NCBI GenBank assembly: GCA_964598725.1
Contig: CAZRCW010000002.1
Coordinates: 226,282 to 290,281 of the forward strand
Source of the DNA: an uncultured Gammaproteobacteria bacterium
GTDB lineage: Bacteria; Patescibacteriota; Patescibacteriia; 2-12-FULL-60-25
Reading direction: 5' to 3'
DNA length: 64,000 bases
A program made the position numbers and the translations under genes. Numbering within the stretch: position 1 is the stretch's first letter; every line of letters starts with the position of its first letter. This document shows, piece by piece, positions 1,659 through 19,517 of the stretch. The notes under the pieces were generated by a model. The model was given only the letters and a program-made list of their open reading frames with translations. It was not told the DNA's origin and did no database searches.

Positions 1659-2837
1659 TTAGCGTTTAGGAGAAACGATTGAGTGAACTGTACCATCTTT
1701 CACTTGAATCGACAGTGTGTCGCCTGCTTGGAGACCTTGAATCGATGATTGAACGGTTCCCGTCGCGTTTCGGACAATTGCGTAGCCTTTTCGAAGAATT
1801 GCTTCCGGTTGATGAGCCTTGATTAAGCGATCGATTACTTCTAGACGATCACGCGCACTCACCATCGTTCGTTCCAAACCGGTTTGAATCATCCGTTCGA
1901 GATGCGTGAAGCGCCAGGTGCACTGCTTGAGCCAGGCGTCGGTCCGCACCATGACACGCTCGATCCGATCACGCGCCTCTTCGATCCACGCATCAAGCGC
2001 TGAACTAACCGATGACTGCAATGTCGCCAACTCATACAGCACATCCATCCGATCTAAGACCAAGCGGCGAGCGCAGTCGGTCGGCGTCGAACCGCGGACA
2101 TCAGCAACTTCTTCGGCAAAAGTCAGATCACGTTCGTGACCAATTCCGACGAGGGTTGGAATGCGGCAAGAGAATAAGGCCCGGACTACCTGTTCATTGT
2201 TAAACGCCATAAGTTCTTCCAGCGATCCTCCACCGCGCGTCAGAACAAGCGCATCATAATTTCGCTCCGCCTGCAGCGATTGTGCTGTTTGAATCGCGGC
2301 CACGATCTGCGTCGGTGCTTGTTCACCCTGCACCATTACGTGGTAAAGGTCGATTTCGAGTCCGCCCCAACGTTCGGATAAGATGCGAACAAAGTCTCCG
2401 TAGGCAGCACTCTCGCGAGATGCGACAAGCGCGATCCGCTTCGGAAAGCGAGTCAGACTCCGTTTACGCGAAGCATCGAATAAGCCTTCTTTTTCAAGTT
2501 TTACGCGCAACATCTGGAGCGCTTTCTGCAGAGCACCCTCACCGATCAGTTCAACGCGATCGGCTGAGAACGAAAACTTTCCATACTTAGGATAAATGCG
2601 TGGCCAGCCATACAAGCGCACACGCATGCCATCTTGAATCGGCACATTCAACTTGGCCGCCGGCATAAAAATACTCACGAGCCCACCTTCGTCTTTGAGA
2701 TCGAAGTTCACCCACTGGCCCTGTGACAAACGATAGGACGTCACCTCGCCTTCAAGCGCCACCTGCTGACTATCCCAAATCGCCTTGAACGTATCGTTCA
2801 AGTACGCGATGAAGGCGGAGACAGTCATGATATGCAT
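1659..2837 (-). CDS. xseA: Exodeoxyribonuclease VII large subunit
   Basis: 392 aa. It has an N-terminal OB fold (VALEGEVTSYRLSQGQWVNFDLKD) and a catalytic core (IALVASRESAAYGDFV, VLTRGGGSLEELMAFNNE). The start may be M4 at 2828. Confidence 0.9.
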   Translation of the reverse strand: MHIMTVSAFIAYLNDTFKAIWDSQQVALEGEVTSYRLSQGQWVNFDLKDEGGLVSIFMPAAKLNVPIQDGMRVRLYGWPRIYPKYGKFSFSADRVELIGEGALQKALQMLRVKLEKEGLFDASRKRSLTRFPKRIALVASRESAAYGDFVRILSERWGGLEIDLYHVMVQGEQAPTQIVAAIQTAQSLQAERNYDALVLTRGGGSLEELMAFNNEQVVRALFSCRIPTLVGIGHERDLTFAEEVADVRGSTPTDCARRLVLDRMDVLYELATLQSSVSSALDAWIEEARDRIERVMVRTDAWLKQCTWRFTHLERMIQTGLERTMVSARDRLEVIDRLIKAHQPEAILRKGYAIVRNATGTVQSSIQGLQAGDTLSIQVKDGTVHSIVSPKR

Positions 2838-2839
2838 AC

Positions 2840-3361
2840 TCAGAGCATGGGGGTTGGGAGGAGCGGACGATAGGCTTCAATATCTACTCCCAACGTATGC
2901 GGTCCGACCGCACGTGGCAAGAGCTCACGAATGGTACCGACCACAATCTTGGTTTTATCTGTGTTACTACAGATCAAAATCGTGTCGCGACTGGCGACAT
3001 CGGCTAATTCGTAGATGTACTGGCGACAGATCCCGCAAGGTGTCAGCGGCTCAACGACACTCGACCCATGATGATGAGCAATTAATGCTAACGCCTCGAG
3101 CGCACGATCCCCCGCTGTATTCGCGGCAGCCAAGGCGGCCTGTTCGGCACAGATCGTTCCCGTTTCGGTTGCTTGCTCAATATTCGCACCGATGTACATT
3201 CGTTTATTGACCGAGCGTACGGCACACCCGACGTGACGGGTTGAATAAGGAGCATAGGCATTCGTCATCGCCCGTACCGCCTCATCGAGGAGAAACTGAT
3301 CTTCGAGGGTGAGATCTTGAAAGCGCATCGGCTGCATAGGAAGGGTTTTAGGGTAGCACAT
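2840..3361 (-). CDS. cdd: Cytidine deaminase
   Basis: The zinc motifs CAEQAA and PCGICRQ are present, together with the APYS..HVGCAV N-terminal motif. The start is uncertain (3361, 3337 or 3328). Confidence 0.8.
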   Translation of the reverse strand: MCYPKTLPMQPMRFQDLTLEDQFLLDEAVRAMTNAYAPYSTRHVGCAVRSVNKRMYIGANIEQATETGTICAEQAALAAANTAGDRALEALALIAHHHGSSVVEPLTPCGICRQYIYELADVASRDTILICSNTDKTKIVVGTIRELLPRAVGPHTLGVDIEAYRPLLPTPML

Positions 3362-3938
3362 GAGAAATGCGTTTGCCTGTCCACTGGTGATCCATTGCCG
3401 TCTTTAGGAAAACTTGATAGAACGTTGAGGCTACGAGAGTTGGCACACCTCTCAAGCGGACTACCAACGTCAACCCAGTGTGTCTCAGATCGGAGCCTTC
3501 TCGATGAAGCTTCAGTCGATTCGGCAGCAGCGCGCCCGCAAGGCCCAGCGTCCCGAGCGTTCGCTCATGTGGGGCGACCCGCGCCGGAAGTCTCGCTACA
3601 GCCCGCCGCGGCAGCCCGCCCGCGAGCAGCACAGGCGCCACCAGCAGAACGGCCGCGCCAAGGCCCAGGTCGCCCGCCACGTCCGCGGCGGCCGCAAGTT
3701 CGACCAGGGCGCCTCCCGCCGCCACTGATCCCCTCCGGTCGCCGGCATCCGCCGCGACCAAAATCCCCTCTCCAGCCCCGCCCCTCCGGTCCTCCCCGGT
3801 GGGGCGGACTGCTATATAAAGCATTATTTGACAGAAAAAGGCTCTGGGGAGTACAACTTGTCCCGCACGGCCCGTGCACACAGGCTGAAGCCGGCGAACT
3901 TCCTCTCCGGATAAGCACAGGGCGAACGAGGTAGCGCG

Positions 3939-4259
3939 ATGTCAGACAATGCGGGCGATACGCCCACCAACGAAGAAGGCACCGAAGGCTCCCCCAGCAA
4001 CCCGCCGACCGACGGCAGCGCCGCGACCGGCAACGAGGGCACCCCCTCGAACCCGCCGCGCGCGAGCAACCCGCCCGACGACGCCGACGAGAAGCCGGCC
4101 CGCGCGAGCAACCCGCCCGACGAGAAGCCCGCCGAGGACGAGCCCGCCCGCGCGAGCAACCCGCCCGCCGAGCCCGCGGCCGAGCCCGACGCCGCGGCCA
4201 CCCCCGAGGGCGGCACGCCCGTCGACGACGGCCAGGGCGACGCCCCGGTCAACCCGTAG
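3939..4259 (+). CDS. GC-rich orphan ORF encoding an acidic Pro-rich repeat protein with an (A)SNPP motif repeated five times
   Basis: The ATG is preceded by GAGGT 9 nt upstream. Third codon positions are almost all G/C in this frame. The protein reads MSDNAGDTPTNEEG...PSNPPTDG...PSNPPRASNPPDD...ARASNPPDE...ARASNPPAE. A strong terminator follows. Confidence 0.65.
   Translation: MSDNAGDTPTNEEGTEGSPSNPPTDGSAATGNEGTPSNPPRASNPPDDADEKPARASNPPDEKPAEDEPARASNPPAEPAAEPDAAATPEGGTPVDDGQGDAPVNP
4059..4166 (+). repeat. Three perfect copies of the 18-mer CGCGCGAGCAACCCGCCC (at 4059, 4101, 4149) inside the SNPP-repeat ORF
   Basis: Located by direct reading. The spacings are 42 and 48 nt, so the copies are in frame and encode RASNPP. 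Confidence 0.9.
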
Positions 4260-4348
4260 AGGGCTGAACCAGCCGCAAGAACAACACCCAGCGCGGAGGT
4301 AGACGCTGGAAGACCCTCAAACCTGTCCGCGTAACTCGCGGACACAGA

Positions 4349-4407: not shown

Positions 4408-5568
4408 TTATTTTATTCGTTGGAACACTAACACCTTTCCTTGTTCGATAGCTCCTTGGAGTGGTTCATCCGAAATCGATGCCAGCTTTTGTAGACGAGT
4501 GACCAACGTAGCGCCCGTCTCTAGCTTTGGCTGGCTCGCAATAATACTAAGCGGAACCGGTGCGATCTCGATTGTTTGAGGAGTGATATTCACTTTCAAT
4601 GCTAATCCTTGCTGTGTTTCTTTGGACCAATCTTGGTCGAAGATGAAATTGCCAAGCGACCACATGATCGGCTTGCCTTTGTATTCTGAAATGCCTTGGA
4701 CCCAGTGCGGATGGCCGCCGATCACGATATCGACACCTTGGTCGATCATCCAGTGTGCAAACTCAACGTTCCCTGCATCTGGATGGTCACGGTATTCCGT
4801 ACCCCAATGTAAGACACTGATCACCAGGGTTGCTTGCTCCTTTGCGAGCTTGATCGCTTTTGCTGCTTCCACGCGATCGATCGGATTATCCGTACTGTTC
4901 CAACCGAGGAACGCGATCGTCTCACCTTTGACCGTCGTCGTTGCCAGGGCAATGAGTCCATCATCCACTTGATGACCAAAGACCACGAAGCCAGCTTCAC
5001 GCAGACGCGAAACTGAGTTAGCATATCCCGCCGAGCCCTGATCTAGTGCATGATTGTTTGCCTGAGAGAATACGTCCCACCCCAGACCTTTCAGCAGCTT
5101 TGCCCAAGCCGGATCGAACTGAAAGTCGATCGACTTTACCGGTGGACGACGTACATCCGTCAACGAACCTTCAAGATTCGCGATCGCGAGATCCGGTTCA
5201 GAGATCCAGTTCTCCGGCAGCTGGCGAAAGGGATACAGCGAATCACCAGACTTCTTCGTCCGATCGGCGACGTTGCGATCGAGCATAATATCACCGACCA
5301 CTAACAGTGAGATATCAGAACTTGCCGCTGACGTTTCGGGCCTAGATGAAGGCGCAACGATCACCGGCGGGACAGACTCGGTAGATGTCGCTATCGAGTC
5401 AGAAGAGATGACATCGATCGAAGACGTTGGAGCAACCGAAACAGCCGGAAGAATCCTCGTCGGAGATACTGGGCTCTGCCATGAGAAATTCCAAGCGAGA
5501 TACAACGCGATACACAGCACAATCACTAACCCTCCGACCCACCACCAGATCTGGCTTTTTTGGTTCAT
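4408..5568 (-). CDS. CapA family protein (PGA_cap metallophosphatase-like), N-terminal membrane anchor
   Basis: Motifs present are LLVVGDIMLDRNV, NLEGSLTD, ANNHALDQG, HWGTEY and GGHPHWVQG. Confidence 0.8.
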   Translation of the reverse strand: MNQKSQIWWWVGGLVIVLCIALYLAWNFSWQSPVSPTRILPAVSVAPTSSIDVISSDSIATSTESVPPVIVAPSSRPETSAASSDISLLVVGDIMLDRNVADRTKKSGDSLYPFRQLPENWISEPDLAIANLEGSLTDVRRPPVKSIDFQFDPAWAKLLKGLGWDVFSQANNHALDQGSAGYANSVSRLREAGFVVFGHQVDDGLIALATTTVKGETIAFLGWNSTDNPIDRVEAAKAIKLAKEQATLVISVLHWGTEYRDHPDAGNVEFAHWMIDQGVDIVIGGHPHWVQGISEYKGKPIMWSLGNFIFDQDWSKETQQGLALKVNITPQTIEIAPVPLSIIASQPKLETGATLVTRLQKLASISDEPLQGAIEQGKVLVFQRIK

Positions 5569-5571
5569 AGG

Positions 5572-6414
5572 CTACTGCTTTGGCATCAGCACAAGAACAA
5601 CTTTGTCACCGTTCGGCACGTCTCCGCCATTCCAATCGTGGACCGCGTTAAATAATATATTCTCAGTATAGATGTATTCTTTTCCTTTGCGCGTCCCTGG
5701 ATCATTCGTCAAAAACGTTCCATCTTTTAAATATCCACGAACAACGAACATATGGTACGGCGGTCCTCCATTGCGGAAGTTCGGATTATTCAATTCTTTT
5801 CCCGAAGCCGGCAAAATCACCGGATACCCATTCGCAACCGCGTTACGCACCTGGTCCATCGAGGTCAGCGCCTGAATGACCGGCTTAAAGCCGTAACGCT
5901 CATTCGCGATCTGGCCGATACGCGCCAAGGTCACATCCGGTTGATCGCCCTGTGATTCTTCGTACGCCACAAGATCAAGAATCAACCGATCGGACTCATC
6001 CGCCGTGGGGTCACTCGTCCGGCCACTCAAGAACTGTTGAACCATTAAGAGCGACGTCTCTTCACAGGCTTCTTGGTACGGCATATCCCAGTTCTGTTTT
6101 GGTGCTTGCAACATGAAGGGCACGGCCAGATTCATCTCGGCTGGTCGTGTTCCTGCAAACGTAAATGGATTCGCTTCCGTTTTTATAGGCTCTGGCTCAG
6201 GGGTAGCTACCAGTTCTGAAGAGGTTGCTATTGGGAGCGCTGGCGTACTCGATGTCGGTCGAGTTGAAGACACCGGCTGATACGGTGTCGCAACCGGAAT
6301 ACTTGGTCGTCCCAGTTCTTCTACCATTGGCCGCCAGACGCCACGAGCGGCATAGGCGCCACCTGCGATCGCGAGTACCACAACAATAGCTGCTAGCTTT
6401 TTGAGTGAAGACAT
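5572..6414 (-). CDS. C39-like cysteine peptidase domain protein (Peptidase_C39_2), membrane anchored
   Basis: It has an N-terminal TM segment, a Pro/Thr/Ser linker, then VPFMLQAPKQNWDMPYQEACEETSLLMV and HMFVVRGY. Confidence 0.65.
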   Translation of the reverse strand: MSSLKKLAAIVVVLAIAGGAYAARGVWRPMVEELGRPSIPVATPYQPVSSTRPTSSTPALPIATSSELVATPEPEPIKTEANPFTFAGTRPAEMNLAVPFMLQAPKQNWDMPYQEACEETSLLMVQQFLSGRTSDPTADESDRLILDLVAYEESQGDQPDVTLARIGQIANERYGFKPVIQALTSMDQVRNAVANGYPVILPASGKELNNPNFRNGGPPYHMFVVRGYLKDGTFLTNDPGTRKGKEYIYTENILFNAVHDWNGGDVPNGDKVVLVLMPKQ

Positions 6415-6470: not shown

Positions 6471-7016
6471 CTACAGGAGCTTCTTTTGATAGACCCAGAT
6501 CCCCTCTTCTCGCTGGATCGGCTCCCAGCCAGGAAGTTCAAAGGTATTTGAAATAATTCTAGCACCAGCTGGCAGCTCGTCCGTGAATTTTTTCGCCAAA
6601 CGAATCATCGCCCGCGGCAGTTGATAGACAAAAACAACATCAGCCTCTGCAAAAGACACATCCCAAAATGATTGCCGAACAAATCGCGCGTTCGGTAATC
6701 GGAACAGCTTAGCAAACAAACGCGAGCGCCAAACCAAAAGCGGATGGATCTCATATCCAACCGCTTGCTTCACCCCAGCTCGTGCGGCACCGAATACGAG
6801 TCGCCCGTCCCCCGAGCCAAGATCGATCACGTGATCTTGATTCGTGAGCTTCGCGAGCTCGAGCATCCGCGCGAGTTTTTTACGTTGTGTTCCAACGAGT
6901 GGCGCATCCCCCCAGATCATCGGCACGAGCGTGTAGCTCACGTAAGCAACAATCACCGTGCAGGCACCCAGCGTGATCAAACCGAGCACGCCCAACAAGA
7001 GGAGATAGCCAATCAT
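6471..7016 (-). CDS. Class I SAM-dependent methyltransferase with N-terminal TM segment
   Basis: SAM motif I, VIDLGSGDGRLVFGAA, is present. 181 aa. Confidence 0.7.
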   Translation of the reverse strand: MIGYLLLLGVLGLITLGACTVIVAYVSYTLVPMIWGDAPLVGTQRKKLARMLELAKLTNQDHVIDLGSGDGRLVFGAARAGVKQAVGYEIHPLLVWRSRLFAKLFRLPNARFVRQSFWDVSFAEADVVFVYQLPRAMIRLAKKFTDELPAGARIISNTFELPGWEPIQREEGIWVYQKKLL

Positions 7017-7019
7017 CTT

Positions 7020-7724
7020 TTATTCTTGAACCGTCACCGACAACATCTTCACCTCTGTGCTTGGACGATCCTGACCGTTGCGTGGCAAGTTCGCGATTTT
7101 CTTCACAACATCCAAGCCTTCAACCACGCGACCAAAGATCGAGTAGTCCGGAGGAAGTGGGTAATCGTCGACCATCACGAAGAACTGTGAACCGTTCGTA
7201 TCGCGACCCGCATTCGCCATGGCGAGCGTCCCATCTGCGTAGTAAGGCGCATTGAACTGCTGGCCCTGCATGTTGAACTGCTTCTCTGGAAGACCGCTCA
7301 CCGCATCGTTTTCAAATTCATACCCTGGACCACCCATGCCGGTGCCGGTTGGATCGCCACCCTGGACCATGAAGCCTGGGATGACGCGGTGGAAAATCGT
7401 GCCATTGTAAAAGCCTGCCTTGACCAACGACAAGAAGTTCGACGCGGCGCGAGGACCTTTTGTGTGATCAAGTTCAATCAAGAAGTCGCCTTGATTCGTC
7501 TGGACACAGACACGCTTTTTATCGACCTGATCAGCGGGCAAGATGCCTGGGAATGTAAGTTTGGTGGAGGAAGACATAGAAGATTGAGGAGTTGTAGGAC
7601 CACAGGTGAACTGTTTCGGGGCACTCACCGTCGTTGGACTATTCGTCGCACAGCCAGCACCGAGCAAGGTCAGCGCTAGAAAGGAAGCAAAAATACGGTT
7701 TTTCATAAGTAGCCTTGGTAGCAT
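7020..7724 (-). CDS. Cyclophilin-type peptidyl-prolyl cis-trans isomerase, lipoprotein
   Basis: Lipobox LLGAGC, followed by FHRVIPGFMVQGGDP, TLAMANAGRDTNGSQFF and IFGRVVEGLDVV. The start is 7724 or 7706. Confidence 0.9.
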   Translation of the reverse strand: MLPRLLMKNRIFASFLALTLLGAGCATNSPTTVSAPKQFTCGPTTPQSSMSSSTKLTFPGILPADQVDKKRVCVQTNQGDFLIELDHTKGPRAASNFLSLVKAGFYNGTIFHRVIPGFMVQGGDPTGTGMGGPGYEFENDAVSGLPEKQFNMQGQQFNAPYYADGTLAMANAGRDTNGSQFFVMVDDYPLPPDYSIFGRVVEGLDVVKKIANLPRNGQDRPSTEVKMLSVTVQE

Positions 7725-7745: not shown

Positions 7746-8747
7746 CTATCTCTCCCAAGGCAAGACGACGGATGGGTCCGTAGAGACTTTCACGAGCGCG
7801 CTCGCCATCTCCGGCGCCAGCCAATCTGGAGGCAAGTGATCTAGATCGAGATCGTCATCCGTCAATTGGTCAGACAGATCTTCTCCTCGCTCGTTCCAAA
7901 CACGCGCGAAGGCTGCCCGTGTTTCGAGTGGCAGCCAACTGGCACGAACAGCGATCGCTGAACCCTTGCCTGCTCGCACCAATCGACGCGCGATCGCGCG
8001 ACAAGCGATCGCTCCCGCCACACGTGGATGACGCAGTTGTAACCCCACTCCCGATGCCGACAACGGCACGTGCGTGACCGTATCAAAGAGATTTCTTCCT
8101 GATGAGCCGATACGCGTTGCGAGACCCGCCTGCGTCTCTTCACCGGCGGGATTAATGCGCAGATCCATTCCCGGAATGACCAACTCGCATGTTCGCTGTA
8201 CGAGCTCACGAACTCGCTCCAGAGCCTGGGTGTCCAAGTGCTCAACGCGAATCAAAACGAGCGGCTTGTCGGCAGTCGTTAGAAAAACGTTAATCTCATA
8301 ATCCGCTCCTAACCAATACCAATCCTGATCGGTCGTGCGGCGCATCTCAAGCAAGCGAGCCAGCTGGCGTGCGATCACGACGGATTTCGGTAGAAATTCC
8401 GGCGTCTCACTTGTCGCAAACCCTTGAACCGTGACCGATTCGCGACTCCCGATCGCTTTTGCCCAGGCGGCAGACATCGGCTCGAAGGCGATGAATGGCT
8501 CGATCGTTCCCAATACCCCGCAAGTCGCAAGCGTCTGTTTAATGGTCGCTGAGACATCGAAATCCGCTGACGAGGCGATCTCACCCGCCAAAAATAAGAC
8601 TCCTTTTCCTCCACAGGCACGGATGTTTAGACGCGATTCCGGATCACGGCGCAGATACTCTTCCACAACCGAAGCAACCACGAGATCGCAGGCCTGATCG
8701 GGATGTCCCGGACCGAGTACGGTGGCCGCTGACATAAGAGGCGACAA
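7746..8747 (-). CDS. Divergent S-adenosylmethionine-synthetase-fold protein with degenerate catalytic motifs
   Basis: By eye it is collinear with MetK. GPGHPDQACDLVVASVVEEYLRRDPESRLNIR aligns with GHPDKIADQISDAVLD..DP.ARVACE. GVLFLAGEIASSADFD aligns with G.V.VGGEITT. VQGFATSET aligns with LMFGYATNET. INPAGE aligns with INPTGRF. The GAGDQG and GGGAFSGKD motifs are not conserved. 333 aa. Confidence 0.6.
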   Translation of the reverse strand: MSPLMSAATVLGPGHPDQACDLVVASVVEEYLRRDPESRLNIRACGGKGVLFLAGEIASSADFDVSATIKQTLATCGVLGTIEPFIAFEPMSAAWAKAIGSRESVTVQGFATSETPEFLPKSVVIARQLARLLEMRRTTDQDWYWLGADYEINVFLTTADKPLVLIRVEHLDTQALERVRELVQRTCELVIPGMDLRINPAGEETQAGLATRIGSSGRNLFDTVTHVPLSASGVGLQLRHPRVAGAIACRAIARRLVRAGKGSAIAVRASWLPLETRAAFARVWNERGEDLSDQLTDDDLDLDHLPPDWLAPEMASALVKVSTDPSVVLPWER

Positions 8748-8792: not shown

Positions 8793-11003
8793 TTAAAACG
8801 GGTCCGGAATATACATTGGCTCGTCGCTGTTAGTCGGTGGTTTCTTTTTAAACACTGTCGACGGTTTCTGCTTCCAAACTGACTTCGTTCCCAAACGTGG
8901 AGCGTAGTTCGGACGAATTGGCGTTTTCTGTTGGAAGACGGGCTGATCATCCCACGAAGCCTGCACCCCATTGTCCTCATTCCATTCCCAGGGTCGTTGC
9001 GGTCGATGCGCAAAACTTGGTCGACTCACCGTATCAATAATTTCCACCCGGTCAAACAAGCGTGGCGCGACTTCGTCGATGAATGTACTCACCTGGTTAA
9101 AGGCCAGCGCTTCGTAGCCCATTGTCATCGGATAACTCAGGACGAGATGACGACGCGCACGGGTAACCGCTACGTAAAACAAGCGACGCTCTTCTTCCAT
9201 TCCCCCTTCCTCCGTCATGGCGCGGCGATTCGGAAAGGCCGTATCCGCCAGATGAATGATAAACACCGAATCCCACTCAAGCCCCTTTGCTTGGTGAATG
9301 GTTGAAAGAATGACCCGTTCTTGATTCAAATCCACCGTCTCGCCTTTTCGTCCGCCCATGACTTCATCGTAGAGGGCGATGTCAGCCAGGAACTTGGAAA
9401 CCTCTTCGTAATTCTCTGCGAAGCGTGCGAGCTGTTCCAAATCTTCCAAGCGCTCCTTCCAGTTCGGGTACTCGCGTTCGAGCAAGGTACGATACGAAGA
9501 GTCGAGAACAGCGCGGATCATCCCCGAAGGAAGCGGGCTCCGAAGCACGATCGCTTCTCCGACCTCCATAAACTCCTGCCAGCCAACCCGACCACGACTC
9601 GCGAGCGCAGCCATCTCAGGCGCCTGAATCACTTCCGCTAGAGAACCAATGCGAACGGCACGTTTAGTGAGGTTCCCCGCCGTGGTTGCCCCAATACCCG
9701 TCTGCAAACCTAACACGCGAAACCAAGCGATCTCATCGACCGGATTGGCTGCCACACGTAGAAAAGCGATGACATCCTTTATATGGGCGCGCTCGAAGAA
9801 CTTCTGGCCACCTCGGTATTCATAGGGAATATCACGCTTCATCAACTCAAATTCCAACGCTTGAGAATGGGCACTCGAACGGAACAAAACCGCCATATTC
9901 TCAAGCGCCGTCCCGTCTGAGCGGAACTGAAGGATCTGTTCAGCGACGTAACGCGCCTCTTGAGCCGCAGAGGCGCACGGAACCAACTTCGGTTTTGGCC
10001 CTGGGTCACGCATCGCCACCAACTCTTTTTCAAACTGCTCAGTATTGTGGCTTAGCGATTCGTTCGCCAACTCTAAAATTTCCGGCACCGAACGATAGTT
10101 CGTGAGTAACTTAAAAATCCTTGCTTCAGGCCACTGTTTTGGGAACGATAATATATTCTTCACATCCGCTCCACGAAACGCATAAATCGACTGGGCGTCA
10201 TCCCCTACAACCAAGACATTTTGGTGCACAGCCGAAAAGCCCTTCACGATGCGCGCCTGGATGGTGTTCGTATCTTGATATTCATCTACCAAAACGTATT
10301 TGAACATCTGACTCAACCCTCGGCCAAGGGATGGATCCTCAAGAACCATCGCCATCAATGACAGGAGGTCATCGAAATCAAAGGCGTTCGAAGCCTTCTT
10401 ACGATCTTGATAGTTGATCGCGATCGTCGCGATATCTCCCGCGAACTGAATAAAGTGTGGATGCTTCGCTTTCAAAACATCCTCGATCGAGCGCTGCGTA
10501 TTCCGGGCATACGAAATAATGTTTTGGACAACCGATGGCGATGGAAAGCGCCGTGCCTTTGGATCGATCGACAGATCTTTCATGACCGCTTTCACCAAAT
10601 CATCGGCGTCATCTGCATCCAGGATCGTGAAGTTATTGGTATAACCAAGTGACTCTGCATAGGGGCGAAGTAAACGGCTCGCCACCGAGTGGAAGGTCCC
10701 GCCCCAGATCCGCGCCGCCTGCGGACCGACCAAGCCTCCCACGCGTTGTAACATCTCTTTGGCTGCCTTATTCGTGAAGGTCAGCAAGAGAATCGAGGAA
10801 GGATCGATGCCCTGCTCCAAAAGATAAGCCACTCGATACGTAATCGTGCGCGTCTTACCGGACCCGGCTCCAGCCAAAACCAAACAGGCGCCGTCACCAT
10901 GCAGAACAACGTCCAATTGCTCTTGGTTGAGCTCGCGTTGGTAGTCGATGCGGCCACTTGGAATCGCTCCTGCCGGGGTGGTTGAGAGAACAAAGGTAGA
11001 CAT
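8793..11003 (-). CDS. pcrA: ATP-dependent DNA helicase, UvrD/PcrA family
   Basis: Motifs present are LNQEQLDVV, Walker A AGAGSGKTRTITYR, VDEYQDTN, VGDDAQSIYAFRGA, TIHQAKGLEW and VAVTRAR. Confidence 0.9.
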   Translation of the reverse strand: MSTFVLSTTPAGAIPSGRIDYQRELNQEQLDVVLHGDGACLVLAGAGSGKTRTITYRVAYLLEQGIDPSSILLLTFTNKAAKEMLQRVGGLVGPQAARIWGGTFHSVASRLLRPYAESLGYTNNFTILDADDADDLVKAVMKDLSIDPKARRFPSPSVVQNIISYARNTQRSIEDVLKAKHPHFIQFAGDIATIAINYQDRKKASNAFDFDDLLSLMAMVLEDPSLGRGLSQMFKYVLVDEYQDTNTIQARIVKGFSAVHQNVLVVGDDAQSIYAFRGADVKNILSFPKQWPEARIFKLLTNYRSVPEILELANESLSHNTEQFEKELVAMRDPGPKPKLVPCASAAQEARYVAEQILQFRSDGTALENMAVLFRSSAHSQALEFELMKRDIPYEYRGGQKFFERAHIKDVIAFLRVAANPVDEIAWFRVLGLQTGIGATTAGNLTKRAVRIGSLAEVIQAPEMAALASRGRVGWQEFMEVGEAIVLRSPLPSGMIRAVLDSSYRTLLEREYPNWKERLEDLEQLARFAENYEEVSKFLADIALYDEVMGGRKGETVDLNQERVILSTIHQAKGLEWDSVFIIHLADTAFPNRRAMTEEGGMEEERRLFYVAVTRARRHLVLSYPMTMGYEALAFNQVSTFIDEVAPRLFDRVEIIDTVSRPSFAHRPQRPWEWNEDNGVQASWDDQPVFQQKTPIRPNYAPRLGTKSVWKQKPSTVFKKKPPTNSDEPMYIPDPF

Positions 11004-11145: not shown

Positions 11146-11416
11146 AGGGCGTTCTGAAAGTCGTAAACGAGCACTTCTGCCCGTCTGATTTTCTGGGAAC
11201 CAGAGCCGCGAAGCAATTCTTCAAGGCTTGAGAGTGAGGTCGCTCTTTCCCAACTCGACCTACCACACAACGTTTAATCACCTCGACGTCGCAACATACG
11301 TCCCGGTGTCAATGGATTTCGAGGCCGTCAGTCAAGGACGGTCTGCCTTCATCTCGTTCGGCCACGGTGGCCAGCGAGCGTCTTCTCCACGCCTTGAGTT
11401 CACGGAGAGTCATCCC

Positions 11417-12814
11417 ATGAAGCGTTTCGCCCTCAAGTCCCTCGTTCTCATTCTCTCGATCGTCGCTGGCAGCACCCTCACGGGCTGCAGCCAGCAGTCC
11501 GAGCGCTCCGCCGCCTTCGACCGCCGCATCGGCGCCCTCGAGGACGCGGGCCCCCGCGTCATCGCGGCGCCCACGCCGGCCCCCGCGCCCACGCCGGCCC
11601 CCGCGCCGGCCCCCGGCGCGGCGCTCACAGACGAGCAGTCGCGCAACTTGGCGACCCTGGCGTACTGCACGCCCGGGCTGCCCAACTACTGCACGGCCGA
11701 CTGCGACGGCGACGACATCGCCAACTGCGTCGACGCCTGCCCCGCGCAGAGCGAGGGCACGGAGGCGCTGATGAAGGACGCGCGCTACGCCCGGCGCGGC
11801 TGCCTCGACACCGACGGCGACCACGACGGCGTGGGTGACACCCAGGACATCTGCCCCACCATCAAGCGGGGAGACCACGAGGACCTGGCGCGGCGCGGCT
11901 GCCCGAGCCCCGACAGCGACAACGACGGCGTGTTCGACAACAACGACGAGTGCCGGCTCATCCCGGTCCACTCGCCCGCCACGCCGACCGCCCCCGCGGC
12001 CGACGCCCAGCACGCCGGGTGCCCCGTCGACGCGGTCCGCGACCCGGACAGCGACGGCGACGGCGTCCGCGACGAGCGCGACGAGTGCCCGCACGAGGTC
12101 GCCGGCGACGATCCCCACCCCGCGCGGCTCGGCTGCCCCGACGTCGACACCGACCACGACGGCCGGCCCGACCGCTGGGACGGCTGCCCGCGCATCCCGG
12201 TCTGGTCGAACCTCACGCAGGGCGCGCCCGACGCGGGCGACTACCCCGGGTGCCCCGAGGGCATGACCCCGACCAACGACGCGCCGCCCGCCATCGCGGA
12301 TGCCGGCACGCCGACCCCCACCCCGACGACGGCCGACGCCGGCAACGCGCCCAACGCGCAGCCCGCCAGCGTCGCGGTGGTCCCGACCCCCGTCGCACCG
12401 CCCGCCCCGGCACCCGCGCCCACGACGACCACCCGGTCGATCGACGGCGCGGACCTGGTGACCGAGCTCACCCGGCTCATGCGCCTCAACGGCGGCGGTG
12501 ACGTCGCTGCGCAGGCCTTCTGCGAGGAGGCGATCGCCAGCGACATCGCGGCGCACAACCCCAACGACGAGTGCCCGGCGGGCGCCCTCTACTGCTTCCG
12601 ACCGGTGACGGCGGGGCGGCAGGTGGCGAACTGCACCGGCACGAGCGTGGACCTCGCGGGCTGCACCCTCGAGGGCAACGGCCACGTCCGCAACGTCTGC
12701 GTCCCCAACACGGGCGTCCAGATCCGCTGCGGCGCGTCGATCCTGACGTGCGACGTGCCGACGCTCGCCGGCGCCATCGCGGCCCGGCCGCGCTCGCGCC
12801 GCCACCACCGCTGA
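11417..12814 (+). CDS. GC-rich lipoprotein with thrombospondin type-3-like calcium-binding repeats and a Cys-rich C-terminal domain
   Basis: GGAGAG lies 8 nt before the ATG at 11417. The signal peptide plus lipobox is MKRFALKSLVLILSIVAGSTLTGC, followed by a PAPAPT linker. The repeats are DTDGDHDGVGDTQDICP, DSDNDGVFDNNDECR, DPDSDGDGVRDERDECP and DVDTDHDGRPDRWDGCP. GC3 is close to saturation. Confidence 0.8.
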   Translation: MKRFALKSLVLILSIVAGSTLTGCSQQSERSAAFDRRIGALEDAGPRVIAAPTPAPAPTPAPAPAPGAALTDEQSRNLATLAYCTPGLPNYCTADCDGDDIANCVDACPAQSEGTEALMKDARYARRGCLDTDGDHDGVGDTQDICPTIKRGDHEDLARRGCPSPDSDNDGVFDNNDECRLIPVHSPATPTAPAADAQHAGCPVDAVRDPDSDGDGVRDERDECPHEVAGDDPHPARLGCPDVDTDHDGRPDRWDGCPRIPVWSNLTQGAPDAGDYPGCPEGMTPTNDAPPAIADAGTPTPTPTTADAGNAPNAQPASVAVVPTPVAPPAPAPAPTTTTRSIDGADLVTELTRLMRLNGGGDVAAQAFCEEAIASDIAAHNPNDECPAGALYCFRPVTAGRQVANCTGTSVDLAGCTLEGNGHVRNVCVPNTGVQIRCGASILTCDVPTLAGAIAARPRSRRHHR

Positions 12815-18044: not shown

Positions 18045-19517
18045 TTAGCCGATTTTCGCTTCCCACGGAAACGGACGTGAATAAACTGCCTCTTGCTTGG
18101 CATAGGTCGTGAGCCAATCCACAGCCTTCGCTGTCGCCTGTACGTCCTCTTCGTTGTAGGCGATAAGCGCTTTCAAATCAGCCGGATCCTTGGCATCAAG
18201 CCAACGTTCATATACACCAACCGAATCCGCGCCGTGCGAAACCGCCCCCTCCCAACTTGCCCCGAGCAATTTTCCGATGTTTTTCAGGCTATAGATATAC
18301 AATGGGAAAACCGCATGGTCCTTTATGACCTCGTTTAGATCCACCATCGCCCCGAGAAAGCGCTTCAGCCCCGTATGCTCGCCCGTCTGATAACGCAACG
18401 CTAAGACACCCAGTCGTTCGTACTCGTACATCGAGTAATGATAGACAATGTACTTTTCTGGCAACGTCTCAGTCCAAGCCAGGAACTTTTCCCAGAGTTT
18501 TTTCTCGCTGCTTAAGCGCTTTGCCACGAACGAAACATACTTATCTTTCTTTCGACCGCTATTCCGTACCAGGCAGCCAAACAGATAATCCGTATCCGTC
18601 GGTGGATGGCTTTCGATATCAAAATGAATCTCACAGGCAACATCCGATGGCGTAAACGGGGCACGCACAATCACTACATCCTCCTTCAAACTGCGTGCTT
18701 GGCGCTGGATTGATTGAAGACTCTTCAATGTTAAGCGTGGATCGAGACCCGATAGCTGACTCGGGTCCATTTCAACCGCTTGATCGACCGTCAGAATCCC
18801 AATCTGGCGCAACGCTTCACGCTGACGACGGTTCACTTGAAACAATAAGGCGATATCCTGTGTGCGCTCTGCGAGCTCAAGACAGCACGCACCCCACGGC
18901 GATACATCAAGACAGGCTTTCCGAAGCGTTGGCTCAGGACATTCCCCTGCCTGGATCCGCTCTAATTCGCCCACAACATCTTGAACCTCAAGCTCAGCGT
19001 CCCGAGGATCGCTTAGCAATAACTCTTGATCGGGACCAAGTACATACGCCTCCGTTGGCAGTACACCTTGGATCTTGGCGAGCAAGCGTCCGTGCCAACC
19101 GAGCTGGAGATGATCTTCTTTTCGCAAAACATGTTTTCGCTTCACAACCACCGGAATATACGACCACGCACCAAAATCGCTCGGCTGTTCTTTCCGGATC
19201 AAGAGCGTCGGGTGACCACTCACTTGTTCAGATTGGAGGCAGCCTTGATAAATCGCTGACACGCCTCGTTTCATCAAACTGAGCGTCTTCTTGGCACGCT
19301 CTTCAGGTGTCGCACCTTTGACCGAAGACAGCTTCCCGTAGACCGCTTGAGCGAGCTTTTTCTCTTTCAAAAGTGTCCCTTGCATAAGCACTTCCCGCGA
19401 CTCCATCCCCTGCTTCTTGAGCTCGGGCCGTCCATACATCTCCCAGTAAATCCAATGGGGACATTGGAGATACCGGAGTAAATCGCGGTCAGACAACGTG
19501 ACTGGAGGGACGGACAT
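18045..19517 (-). CDS. RecB-family nuclease, TM0106-like (PD-(D/E)xK N-domain plus RNase-H-like C-domain)
   Basis: 490 aa. Motifs are LRYLQCPHWIYW, the PD-(D/E)xK-type run GHPTLLIRKE...YIPVVVKRKH, and in the C-terminal part HFDIESHP...YLFG...AYNEEDV. Confidence 0.6.
   Translation of the reverse strand: MSVPPVTLSDRDLLRYLQCPHWIYWEMYGRPELKKQGMESREVLMQGTLLKEKKLAQAVYGKLSSVKGATPEERAKKTLSLMKRGVSAIYQGCLQSEQVSGHPTLLIRKEQPSDFGAWSYIPVVVKRKHVLRKEDHLQLGWHGRLLAKIQGVLPTEAYVLGPDQELLLSDPRDAELEVQDVVGELERIQAGECPEPTLRKACLDVSPWGACCLELAERTQDIALLFQVNRRQREALRQIGILTVDQAVEMDPSQLSGLDPRLTLKSLQSIQRQARSLKEDVVIVRAPFTPSDVACEIHFDIESHPPTDTDYLFGCLVRNSGRKKDKYVSFVAKRLSSEKKLWEKFLAWTETLPEKYIVYHYSMYEYERLGVLALRYQTGEHTGLKRFLGAMVDLNEVIKDHAVFPLYIYSLKNIGKLLGASWEGAVSHGADSVGVYERWLDAKDPADLKALIAYNEEDVQATAKAVDWLTTYAKQEAVYSRPFPWEAKIG

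Follow-up and report, generated by a model that had tools for sequence, protein, structure and literature searches.

A degenerate MetK homologue in the metK slot of Candidatus Uhrbacteria, a probable pseudoenzyme

In this work, we analysed a stretch of 64,000 nucleotides (hereafter, the window; contig CAZRCW010000002.1 of assembly GCA_964598725.1, positions 226,282 to 290,281) from a genome of Candidatus Uhrbacteria, a member of the Patescibacteria or candidate phyla radiation (CPR); this source genome comprises 1.49 Mb in 19 contigs and is 95.5% complete. Our subject is one gene of the window, which we call MAT-like, since its product has the fold of MetK, the S-adenosylmethionine (SAM) synthetase or methionine adenosyltransferase (MAT). 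The MAT-like gene is a positional ortholog of metK, and most of the catalytic residues of MetK are gone from its product. Our best interpretation, to which we assign a probability of roughly 0.72, is that MAT-like encodes a pseudoenzyme that descended in place from metK, does not synthesise SAM and has a non-catalytic role. The gene is summarised as follows:

7746..8747, minus strand: MAT-like, gene of a probable MAT/MetK-fold pseudoenzyme (Pfam N and M domains, TIGR01034 match below cut-off, signature count, AlphaFold2 model, Foldseek, ratio of nonsynonymous to synonymous substitution rates)

MetK is among the most conserved enzymes in biology. Given this conservation, a catalytically stripped version that is family-wide and maintained by selection is unexpected; a full-text search of the literature returned no paper on MetK or MAT degeneration in bacteria or CPR.

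Fold and active-site residues of the MAT-like protein

The open reading frame (ORF) of MAT-like is uninterrupted and gives 333 aa when counted from the TTG at 8747. Both the consensus of its family, M..A.VRGPGHPD, and a 329-aa database entry (P0002) begin at the ATG at 8735; the true start is probably this ATG, four codons inside the TTG, with a product of 329 aa. An initial annotation, made from the letters of the sequence, had described the protein as about 50 aa shorter than canonical MetK. This is correct in comparison with E. coli MetK, but against the canonical MetKs of its own class (345-352 aa) the difference shrinks to just ~15-25 aa.

By fold and by descent, the MAT-like protein belongs to the MetK superfamily. 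Pfam profile searches gave 46 bits with S-AdoMet_synt_N (gathering score 33.1) and 31.7 bits with S-AdoMet_synt_M (gathering score 29), so that the likeness to MetK seen in the initial annotation holds at the profile level for the N and M domains; it does not for the C domain, as S-AdoMet_synt_C found no match in the protein, nor for TIGR01034 (metK), whose 63.7 bits do not reach the equivalog cut-off of 309.4. The closest sequences in the PDB are human MAT2A and MAT1A (E ~1e-15). An AlphaFold2 model, for which a 104-sequence alignment of the family served as input, had a predicted local distance difference test score (pLDDT) of 94.4 and a predicted template modelling score (pTM) of 0.92, its sole weak stretch being residues ~221-230, directly before the former P-loop. 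When this model was searched against the PDB with Foldseek, the top 50 matches were all MATs, with template modelling (TM) scores of 0.75-0.87 and 19-23% identity. Taken together, the model and the Foldseek matches reveal the three-domain MAT fold with its three βαββαβ repeats; the earlier suggestion of collinearity with SAM synthetase over three domains has thus proved right along the whole length of the protein, and the proposed superposition on solved MATs succeeded as well. No solved structure of such a degenerate variant was present among the PDB sequence or Foldseek matches. Likewise, no curated family was found for the protein, NCBIfam giving just TIGR01034 below its cut-off.

To describe the active site, we used a signature of 22 MetK positions in a MAFFT alignment. 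This included E. coli MetK from NC_000913 (with the literature numbering checked against the sequence), canonical MetKs of the same class, relatives of the MAT-like protein and canonical MATs from a library of 1.84 billion proteins. The MAT-like protein keeps four of the 22 positions, namely H14, D16, E55 and R244. In this alignment, 26 representative clusters of its family reach 1-5/22, as opposed to 19-22/22 for canonical MATs drawn from all of life. The individual sites of MetK appear in the MAT-like protein as follows:

GHPDK motif: GHPDQ, with K17Q and with H and D kept
K+ ligand: E42R
Methionine ligand: Q98M
GAGDQG loop (D118): GSRESV
Triphosphate ligand: K165E
Adenine stacking: F230E
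Methionine/ribose ligand: D238R
Triphosphate ligand: K245N
HGGGAFSGKD loop: SASGVGLQ
Triphosphate ligands: K265L and K269H
Mg2+ ligand: D271R

The stretch corresponding to HGGGAFSGKD..K.D of MetK reads SASGVGLQLRHPR, and the gating loop following Q98 is shortened. Among the methionine ligands E55, Q98 and D238, E55 alone is retained; at the triphosphate/Mg2+ site R244 alone survives, a residue found in ~27-58% of the family. In the GHPDK motif, H14 is the acid catalyst and D16 is a Mg2+ ligand; across the family, the H of this motif is present in ~62%, the D in 73-91% and the K in ~10%. Three of the changes had already been noticed in the initial annotation, i.e., Lys to Gln in GHPDK and the replacement of both the GAGDQG loop and the GGGAFSGKD P-loop. 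Inspection of the aligned columns confirms that this alignment by eye was right in every motif, and altogether 18 of the 22 catalytic or ligand-binding positions are replaced.

Compared with MetK/MAT proper (TIGR01034; E. coli MetK 1fug, human MAT2A and Ureaplasma MAT 6rjs), to which TM scores reach 0.87, the MAT-like protein has the same three-domain fold and a series of common motifs: G.PD, CDQ-like, GGE, GYAT.ET..LP, W-L..D, NP.G, G..GR, AR..A and the C-terminal LPWE. It differs in that the replaced positions are also unconserved, the gating loop is shortened, the P-loop and the C-terminal TAAYGHFGR are lost, and evolution is far faster. Since the protein fails both the catalytic hallmarks and the curated cut-off, we advise against classifying it as a methionine adenosyltransferase. 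In existing databases, several members at JGI and one at NCBI are named "S-adenosylmethionine synthetase" or "methionine adenosyltransferase", and such labels would make metabolic reconstructions of Uhrbacteria wrongly credit these organisms with SAM synthesis.

The pattern of conservation within the family is also informative. Over the 21 alignable ex-catalytic positions, the mean column entropy is 2.50 bits versus 2.07 bits for all columns (one-sided Mann-Whitney p = 0.034), whereas the same positions have entropy near zero in canonical MATs. Position 165, for example, is occupied by E, D, S, A, Y, W, N or R, and positions 230, 244, 245, 265 and 271 take nearly any residue. The family alignment contains 10 columns that are invariant and 41 that nearly are; these hold mainly Gly, Pro and hydrophobic residues with few polar ones, and most of them are common to the canonical MATs of the class. 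A new conserved set of catalytic-type polar residues replacing the old site was not found in the family columns. Because the replaced positions vary at least as much as the average column, we favour a former MAT site that decayed rather than one that was re-tooled. The initial annotation had left the choice between a non-catalytic MAT-fold protein and a different substrate chemistry; this dichotomy is supported, and the variability of the former site speaks for its first option.

Distribution, selection and descent from metK

The MAT-like gene was found in each of the 32 genomes searched from one Uhrbacteria family (as defined in GTDB), with no internal stops and at 34-72% identity; the survey of related genomes that had been advised thus found the variant, with its signature count of 1-5/22 in the 26 representatives, to be a family-wide trait. 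For unsaturated ortholog pairs, the ratio of nonsynonymous to synonymous substitution rates (dN/dS) was 0.06 at a dS of 0.08 and 0.10 at a dS of 0.36. Such values, along with the intact frame in every genome of the family, indicate that MAT-like is not a pseudogene. The gene evolves faster than its neighbours, family-wide identity being 33-50% for MAT-like versus 52-67% for the adjacent UvrD-type helicase. In one genus of the family (G206 at L055:6008-6895, G239 and G322), the C-terminus is truncated, leaving ~300 aa; G206 also retains a canonical MetK elsewhere (L054). An apparent gene fusion in L039, an 892-aa frame, was rejected as an artefactual upstream extension of low complexity, the real start being MLKVVEAPLAGHPDK.

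The genomic slot of MAT-like in the window is formed by the following genes:

8793..11003, minus strand: UvrD/PcrA-type helicase, upstream of MAT-like (Pfam UvrD-helicase and UvrD_C; 45-nt gap to the TTG of MAT-like)
7020..7724, minus strand: cyclophilin-type peptidyl-prolyl isomerase (PPIase), downstream of MAT-like, with an N-terminal extension of ~70 aa (Pro_isomerase, 2.5e-41; 21-nt gap)
6471..7016, minus strand: small class-I methyltransferase-like protein (weak PrmA, DOT1 and Methyltransf Pfam matches)
5572..6414, minus strand: Peptidase_C39_2-like protein (Pfam match), a conserved member of the slot
4408..5568, minus strand: CapA/PGA_cap protein (PGA_cap, 6.1e-56), a conserved member of the slot
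1659..2837, minus strand: exonuclease VII large subunit, XseA (Pfam Exonuc_VII_L), at the far end of the conserved order

Pfam matches bear out the minus-strand neighbourhood of a PPIase, a methyltransferase, a C39-like peptidase and CapA listed in the initial annotation. In all 15 family loci, to the extent that their contigs reach, the genes follow the order UvrD – MAT-like – PPIase – C39_2 peptidase – CapA – XseA; occasional genes are inserted, and CapA is missing from L024. UvrD lies upstream and PPIase downstream of MAT-like in each of the 15, and the C39_2 peptidase is present in 14, the exception, L019, ending ~700 bases beyond the PPIase. The slot reaches beyond the family, since the peptidase occurs in loci of sister families, UvrD also stands upstream of canonical MetK in sister families, and the PPIase also adjoins the partly decayed and some canonical MetK copies of other families.

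We extended the comparison to 20 loci from elsewhere in the class, outside this family, mapping the neighbours and scoring the 22 positions. Together with the MAT-like family, they fall into three states:

State a: canonical MetK in single copy, 21-22/22, in the same slot beside UvrD and/or PPIase/C39 (G082, G138, G088, G281, G291, G041 and G120)
State b: partly decayed copy, 7-14/22, in the same slot (G053, G043, G268, G296, G166, G236 and G117)
State c: family variant, 1-5/22, in the same slot (the 32 genomes of the family)

Three of the state-b genomes (G043, G296 and G236) hold a canonical MetK elsewhere as well; within the MAT-like family itself, such a copy is found in G021, G023 and G206 only (3 of 32). 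In a maximum-likelihood tree (IQ-TREE, LG+G4+F, 1000 ultrafast bootstrap replicates), the non-syntenic canonical copies composed their own clade (support 93), while the syntenic canonical copies made up a grade from which one degenerate clade (support 100) arose; the clade of the family variant (support 100) was nested inside the latter. MAT-like is, therefore, the positional ortholog of metK, standing where sister families have their canonical metK. Its closest canonical relatives are the short MetKs of the class (345-352 aa; e.g., G021, G036 and G088), which are its immediate ancestors or paralogs. They have in common with it the compact length, the DEYLRRDP motif and the FGG.G hairpin, and they also adjoin PPIase, C39 and UvrD genes; they differ in scoring 21-22/22, against 4/22 for the MAT-like protein, and in passing TIGR01034 with ~410-420 bits. 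It should be kept in mind that the gene neighbourhood predates the decay, and synteny alone is thus no argument for a functional link between MAT-like and its neighbours.

The simplest history that we can propose assumes two MetK lineages in the class, of which, where both are present, the syntenic one lost catalysis. The class ancestor would have carried a housekeeping metK in the UvrD…PPIase/C39…XseA slot, from which the MAT-like gene would descend in place. In the course of this descent, the syntenic copy would have lost the residues that bind the ATP triphosphate, the two Mg2+ ions, K+, the adenine ring and methionine, and in the family its gating loop would have been shortened and its P-loop would have become disordered. 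The second, canonical MetK probably made the decaying copy dispensable as an enzyme and would later itself have been lost from most genomes of the family. If so, a single slot records the way from enzyme to pseudoenzyme: canonical at first, then partly decayed with a canonical back-up elsewhere, and finally fully decayed with the back-up lost.

Outside the Uhrbacteria clade, 12 MAT-like proteins of the library keep 6-14/22 positions (P0183, P0197, P0204, P0209, P0211, P0237, P0248, P0250, P0254, P0260, P0261 and P0263), and judging from such sequences, degenerate MetK homologues may have arisen several times. A FastTree reconstruction of 130 representatives placed other long-branch degenerate MAT-likes nearby; we set this grouping aside as possible long-branch attraction.

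SAM supply and the function of MAT-like

The question of whether a canonical metK exists elsewhere in the source genome received a negative answer, and none was found in any of the 10 genomes of the genus. The archaeal-type MAT (PF01941) had no match in the source genome, the same profile giving control matches in four archaea; DUF62, i.e., SAM hydroxide adenosyltransferase (PF01887), was not found in the source genome either. At the same time, this genome encodes TrmD, five radical-SAM proteins and a protein of the PNP/MTAN family. TrmD also persists in 12 genomes, each from a different sister family, in which any MetK homologue is missing, which makes SAM uptake the likely rule in the class. 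We infer that the cells bearing MAT-like obtain SAM by import. The known SAM carriers of Rickettsia and Chlamydia belong to the EamA/DMT family; a transporter of this family is encoded at a single locus of the source genome, outside the window (G000:C1:791679-792428), and it is, by analogy, a candidate only for the SAM carrier. A need to import SAM where MAT is missing would be one more respect in which CPR bacteria depend on hosts or on the community around them.

Regarding MAT-like itself, the loss of the residues strongly suggests that its product makes no SAM, and the retention of a complete MAT fold under strong purifying selection makes a non-catalytic role most likely. The protein most likely works as a folded, probably dimeric, binding or scaffold protein. 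It combines homology to an active enzyme family with loss of the catalytic residues and purifying selection across species, features expected of a pseudoenzyme. A parallel among the pseudoenzymes of SAM and polyamine metabolism is the trypanosomatid AdoMetDC "prozyme", a dead paralog that works by heterodimerising with its active paralog (PMC6221367). Like this prozyme, MAT-like would be a catalytically dead homologue from core metabolism kept by selection; unlike in the case of the prozyme, most genomes with MAT-like have no active MAT to regulate. A prozyme-like regulator of an active MetK paralog was consequently rejected as a general mechanism, as 29 of the 32 family genomes have no canonical MetK. 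Binding to nucleic acids, hinted at by the UvrD neighbour, was rejected too, because the isoelectric points in the family (5.0-6.3) are as acidic as those of canonical MATs.

Several points count against a pseudoenzyme. The probable loss of SAM-forming activity is deduced from the residues, of which D16, as well as an acidic side chain at position 55, persists in most members. A need for SAM in a genome with no other recognisable synthetase would also fit a very aberrant but working MAT, and the absence of a second metK rests on 95.5% completeness and on the finding that none of the 10 genomes in the genus has one. The conserved gene order around MAT-like may be mere inherited synteny. Finally, R42, E165, E230, R238 and H269 recur in 60-75% of 104 sequences representing the closer half of the family and could mark a remodelled site; it is also possible that they form salt bridges filling the cleft.

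The last point leads to the alternative that survives best, albeit as an unlikely one: a re-tooled MAT fold that binds or transforms some other small molecule, using either the remodelled cleft between subunits or a new site. Besides the recurrent charge-swapped residues (E42R, K165E, F230E, D238R and K269H) and the strong purifying selection, it draws on the presence of D16 in ~90% of the closer members and on the derived motifs S.ADFDV and EPF. These are invariant or near-invariant; they emerge with the partly decayed copies and are still present in the family variant. A candidate site would be the acidic patch S59/D62/D64/E89, whose appearance coincides with the loss of GAGDQG. However, over the entire family, conservation of the former site does not exceed that of the average column, no conserved set of catalytic-type polar residues has replaced it, and the P-loop equivalent is of low confidence or disordered in the AlphaFold2 model. 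To our knowledge, the MAT fold has long been regarded as single-function. It is tempting to speculate that in CPR this fold gave rise to a selected non-MAT lineage with a new ligand-binding or catalytic site, which may lie, for instance, in the derived acidic S.ADFDV / EPF..EP patch or in the charge-swapped former cleft. We find this broader proposal a shade harder still to credit; if true, such a site would give the MetK fold its first biochemical function other than that of a MAT.

We consider it very improbable that MAT-like is a functionless relic, decaying slowly and with its loss still pending. Progressive loss of catalytic residues along the series of states, evolution faster than that of the neighbouring UvrD and the C-terminal truncation in one genus would all agree with such a relic. 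Against it stand the low dN/dS, the frame kept intact in all genomes of the family in spite of their divergence, the invariant and nearly invariant columns, the high-confidence predicted fold and the strong streamlining of these genomes of ~1 Mb.

Least credible of all is that MAT-like remains the methionine adenosyltransferase of the cell with a non-canonical set of residues: the demand of TrmD and the radical-SAM enzymes for SAM, the lack of another MAT of either type, the JGI and NCBI labels and the remaining H14, D16, E55 and R244 would speak for it, but K165, K245, K265, K269, D271, D238, F230, E42 and both glycine loops are gone, the lost residues are invariant from bacteria to humans in our alignment and none is conserved within the family, a canonical MetK coexists with MAT-like in three family genomes, and the SAM-dependent TrmD of MetK-free sister families points to SAM uptake being available in the class.

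Further observations on the neighbourhood

A scan for promoters and terminators between UvrD and CapA performed no better than on shuffled sequence. Within the slot, the methyltransferase-like gene (6471..7016) is the least constant element, being found at this place in only some genomes (L031 and L023). It is present in G006 and absent from this place in G004, and a weak match to it (25% identity) lies between UvrD and MAT-like in G020. From this distribution, we regard it as a mobile or facultative addition to the conserved slot.

Between a cytidine deaminase gene and CapA, there are two partly overlapping minus-strand ORFs of ~175 aa each (3348-3881 and 3824-4345) with no Pfam match. On the other side of the slot, divergent from UvrD, the plus-strand gene at 11228-12814 encodes a GC-rich (62%) protein with thrombospondin type-3 repeats, weak homologues of which are found at the same place in G004 and G006. 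Lastly, a homologue of another ORF of the window (18045-19517, 490 aa) lies between the PPIase and the C39 peptidase in L037, L039, L042, L044 and L047. These homologues, from sister families, adjoin partly decayed MetK copies; in the source genome, the ORF is located ~10 kb away.

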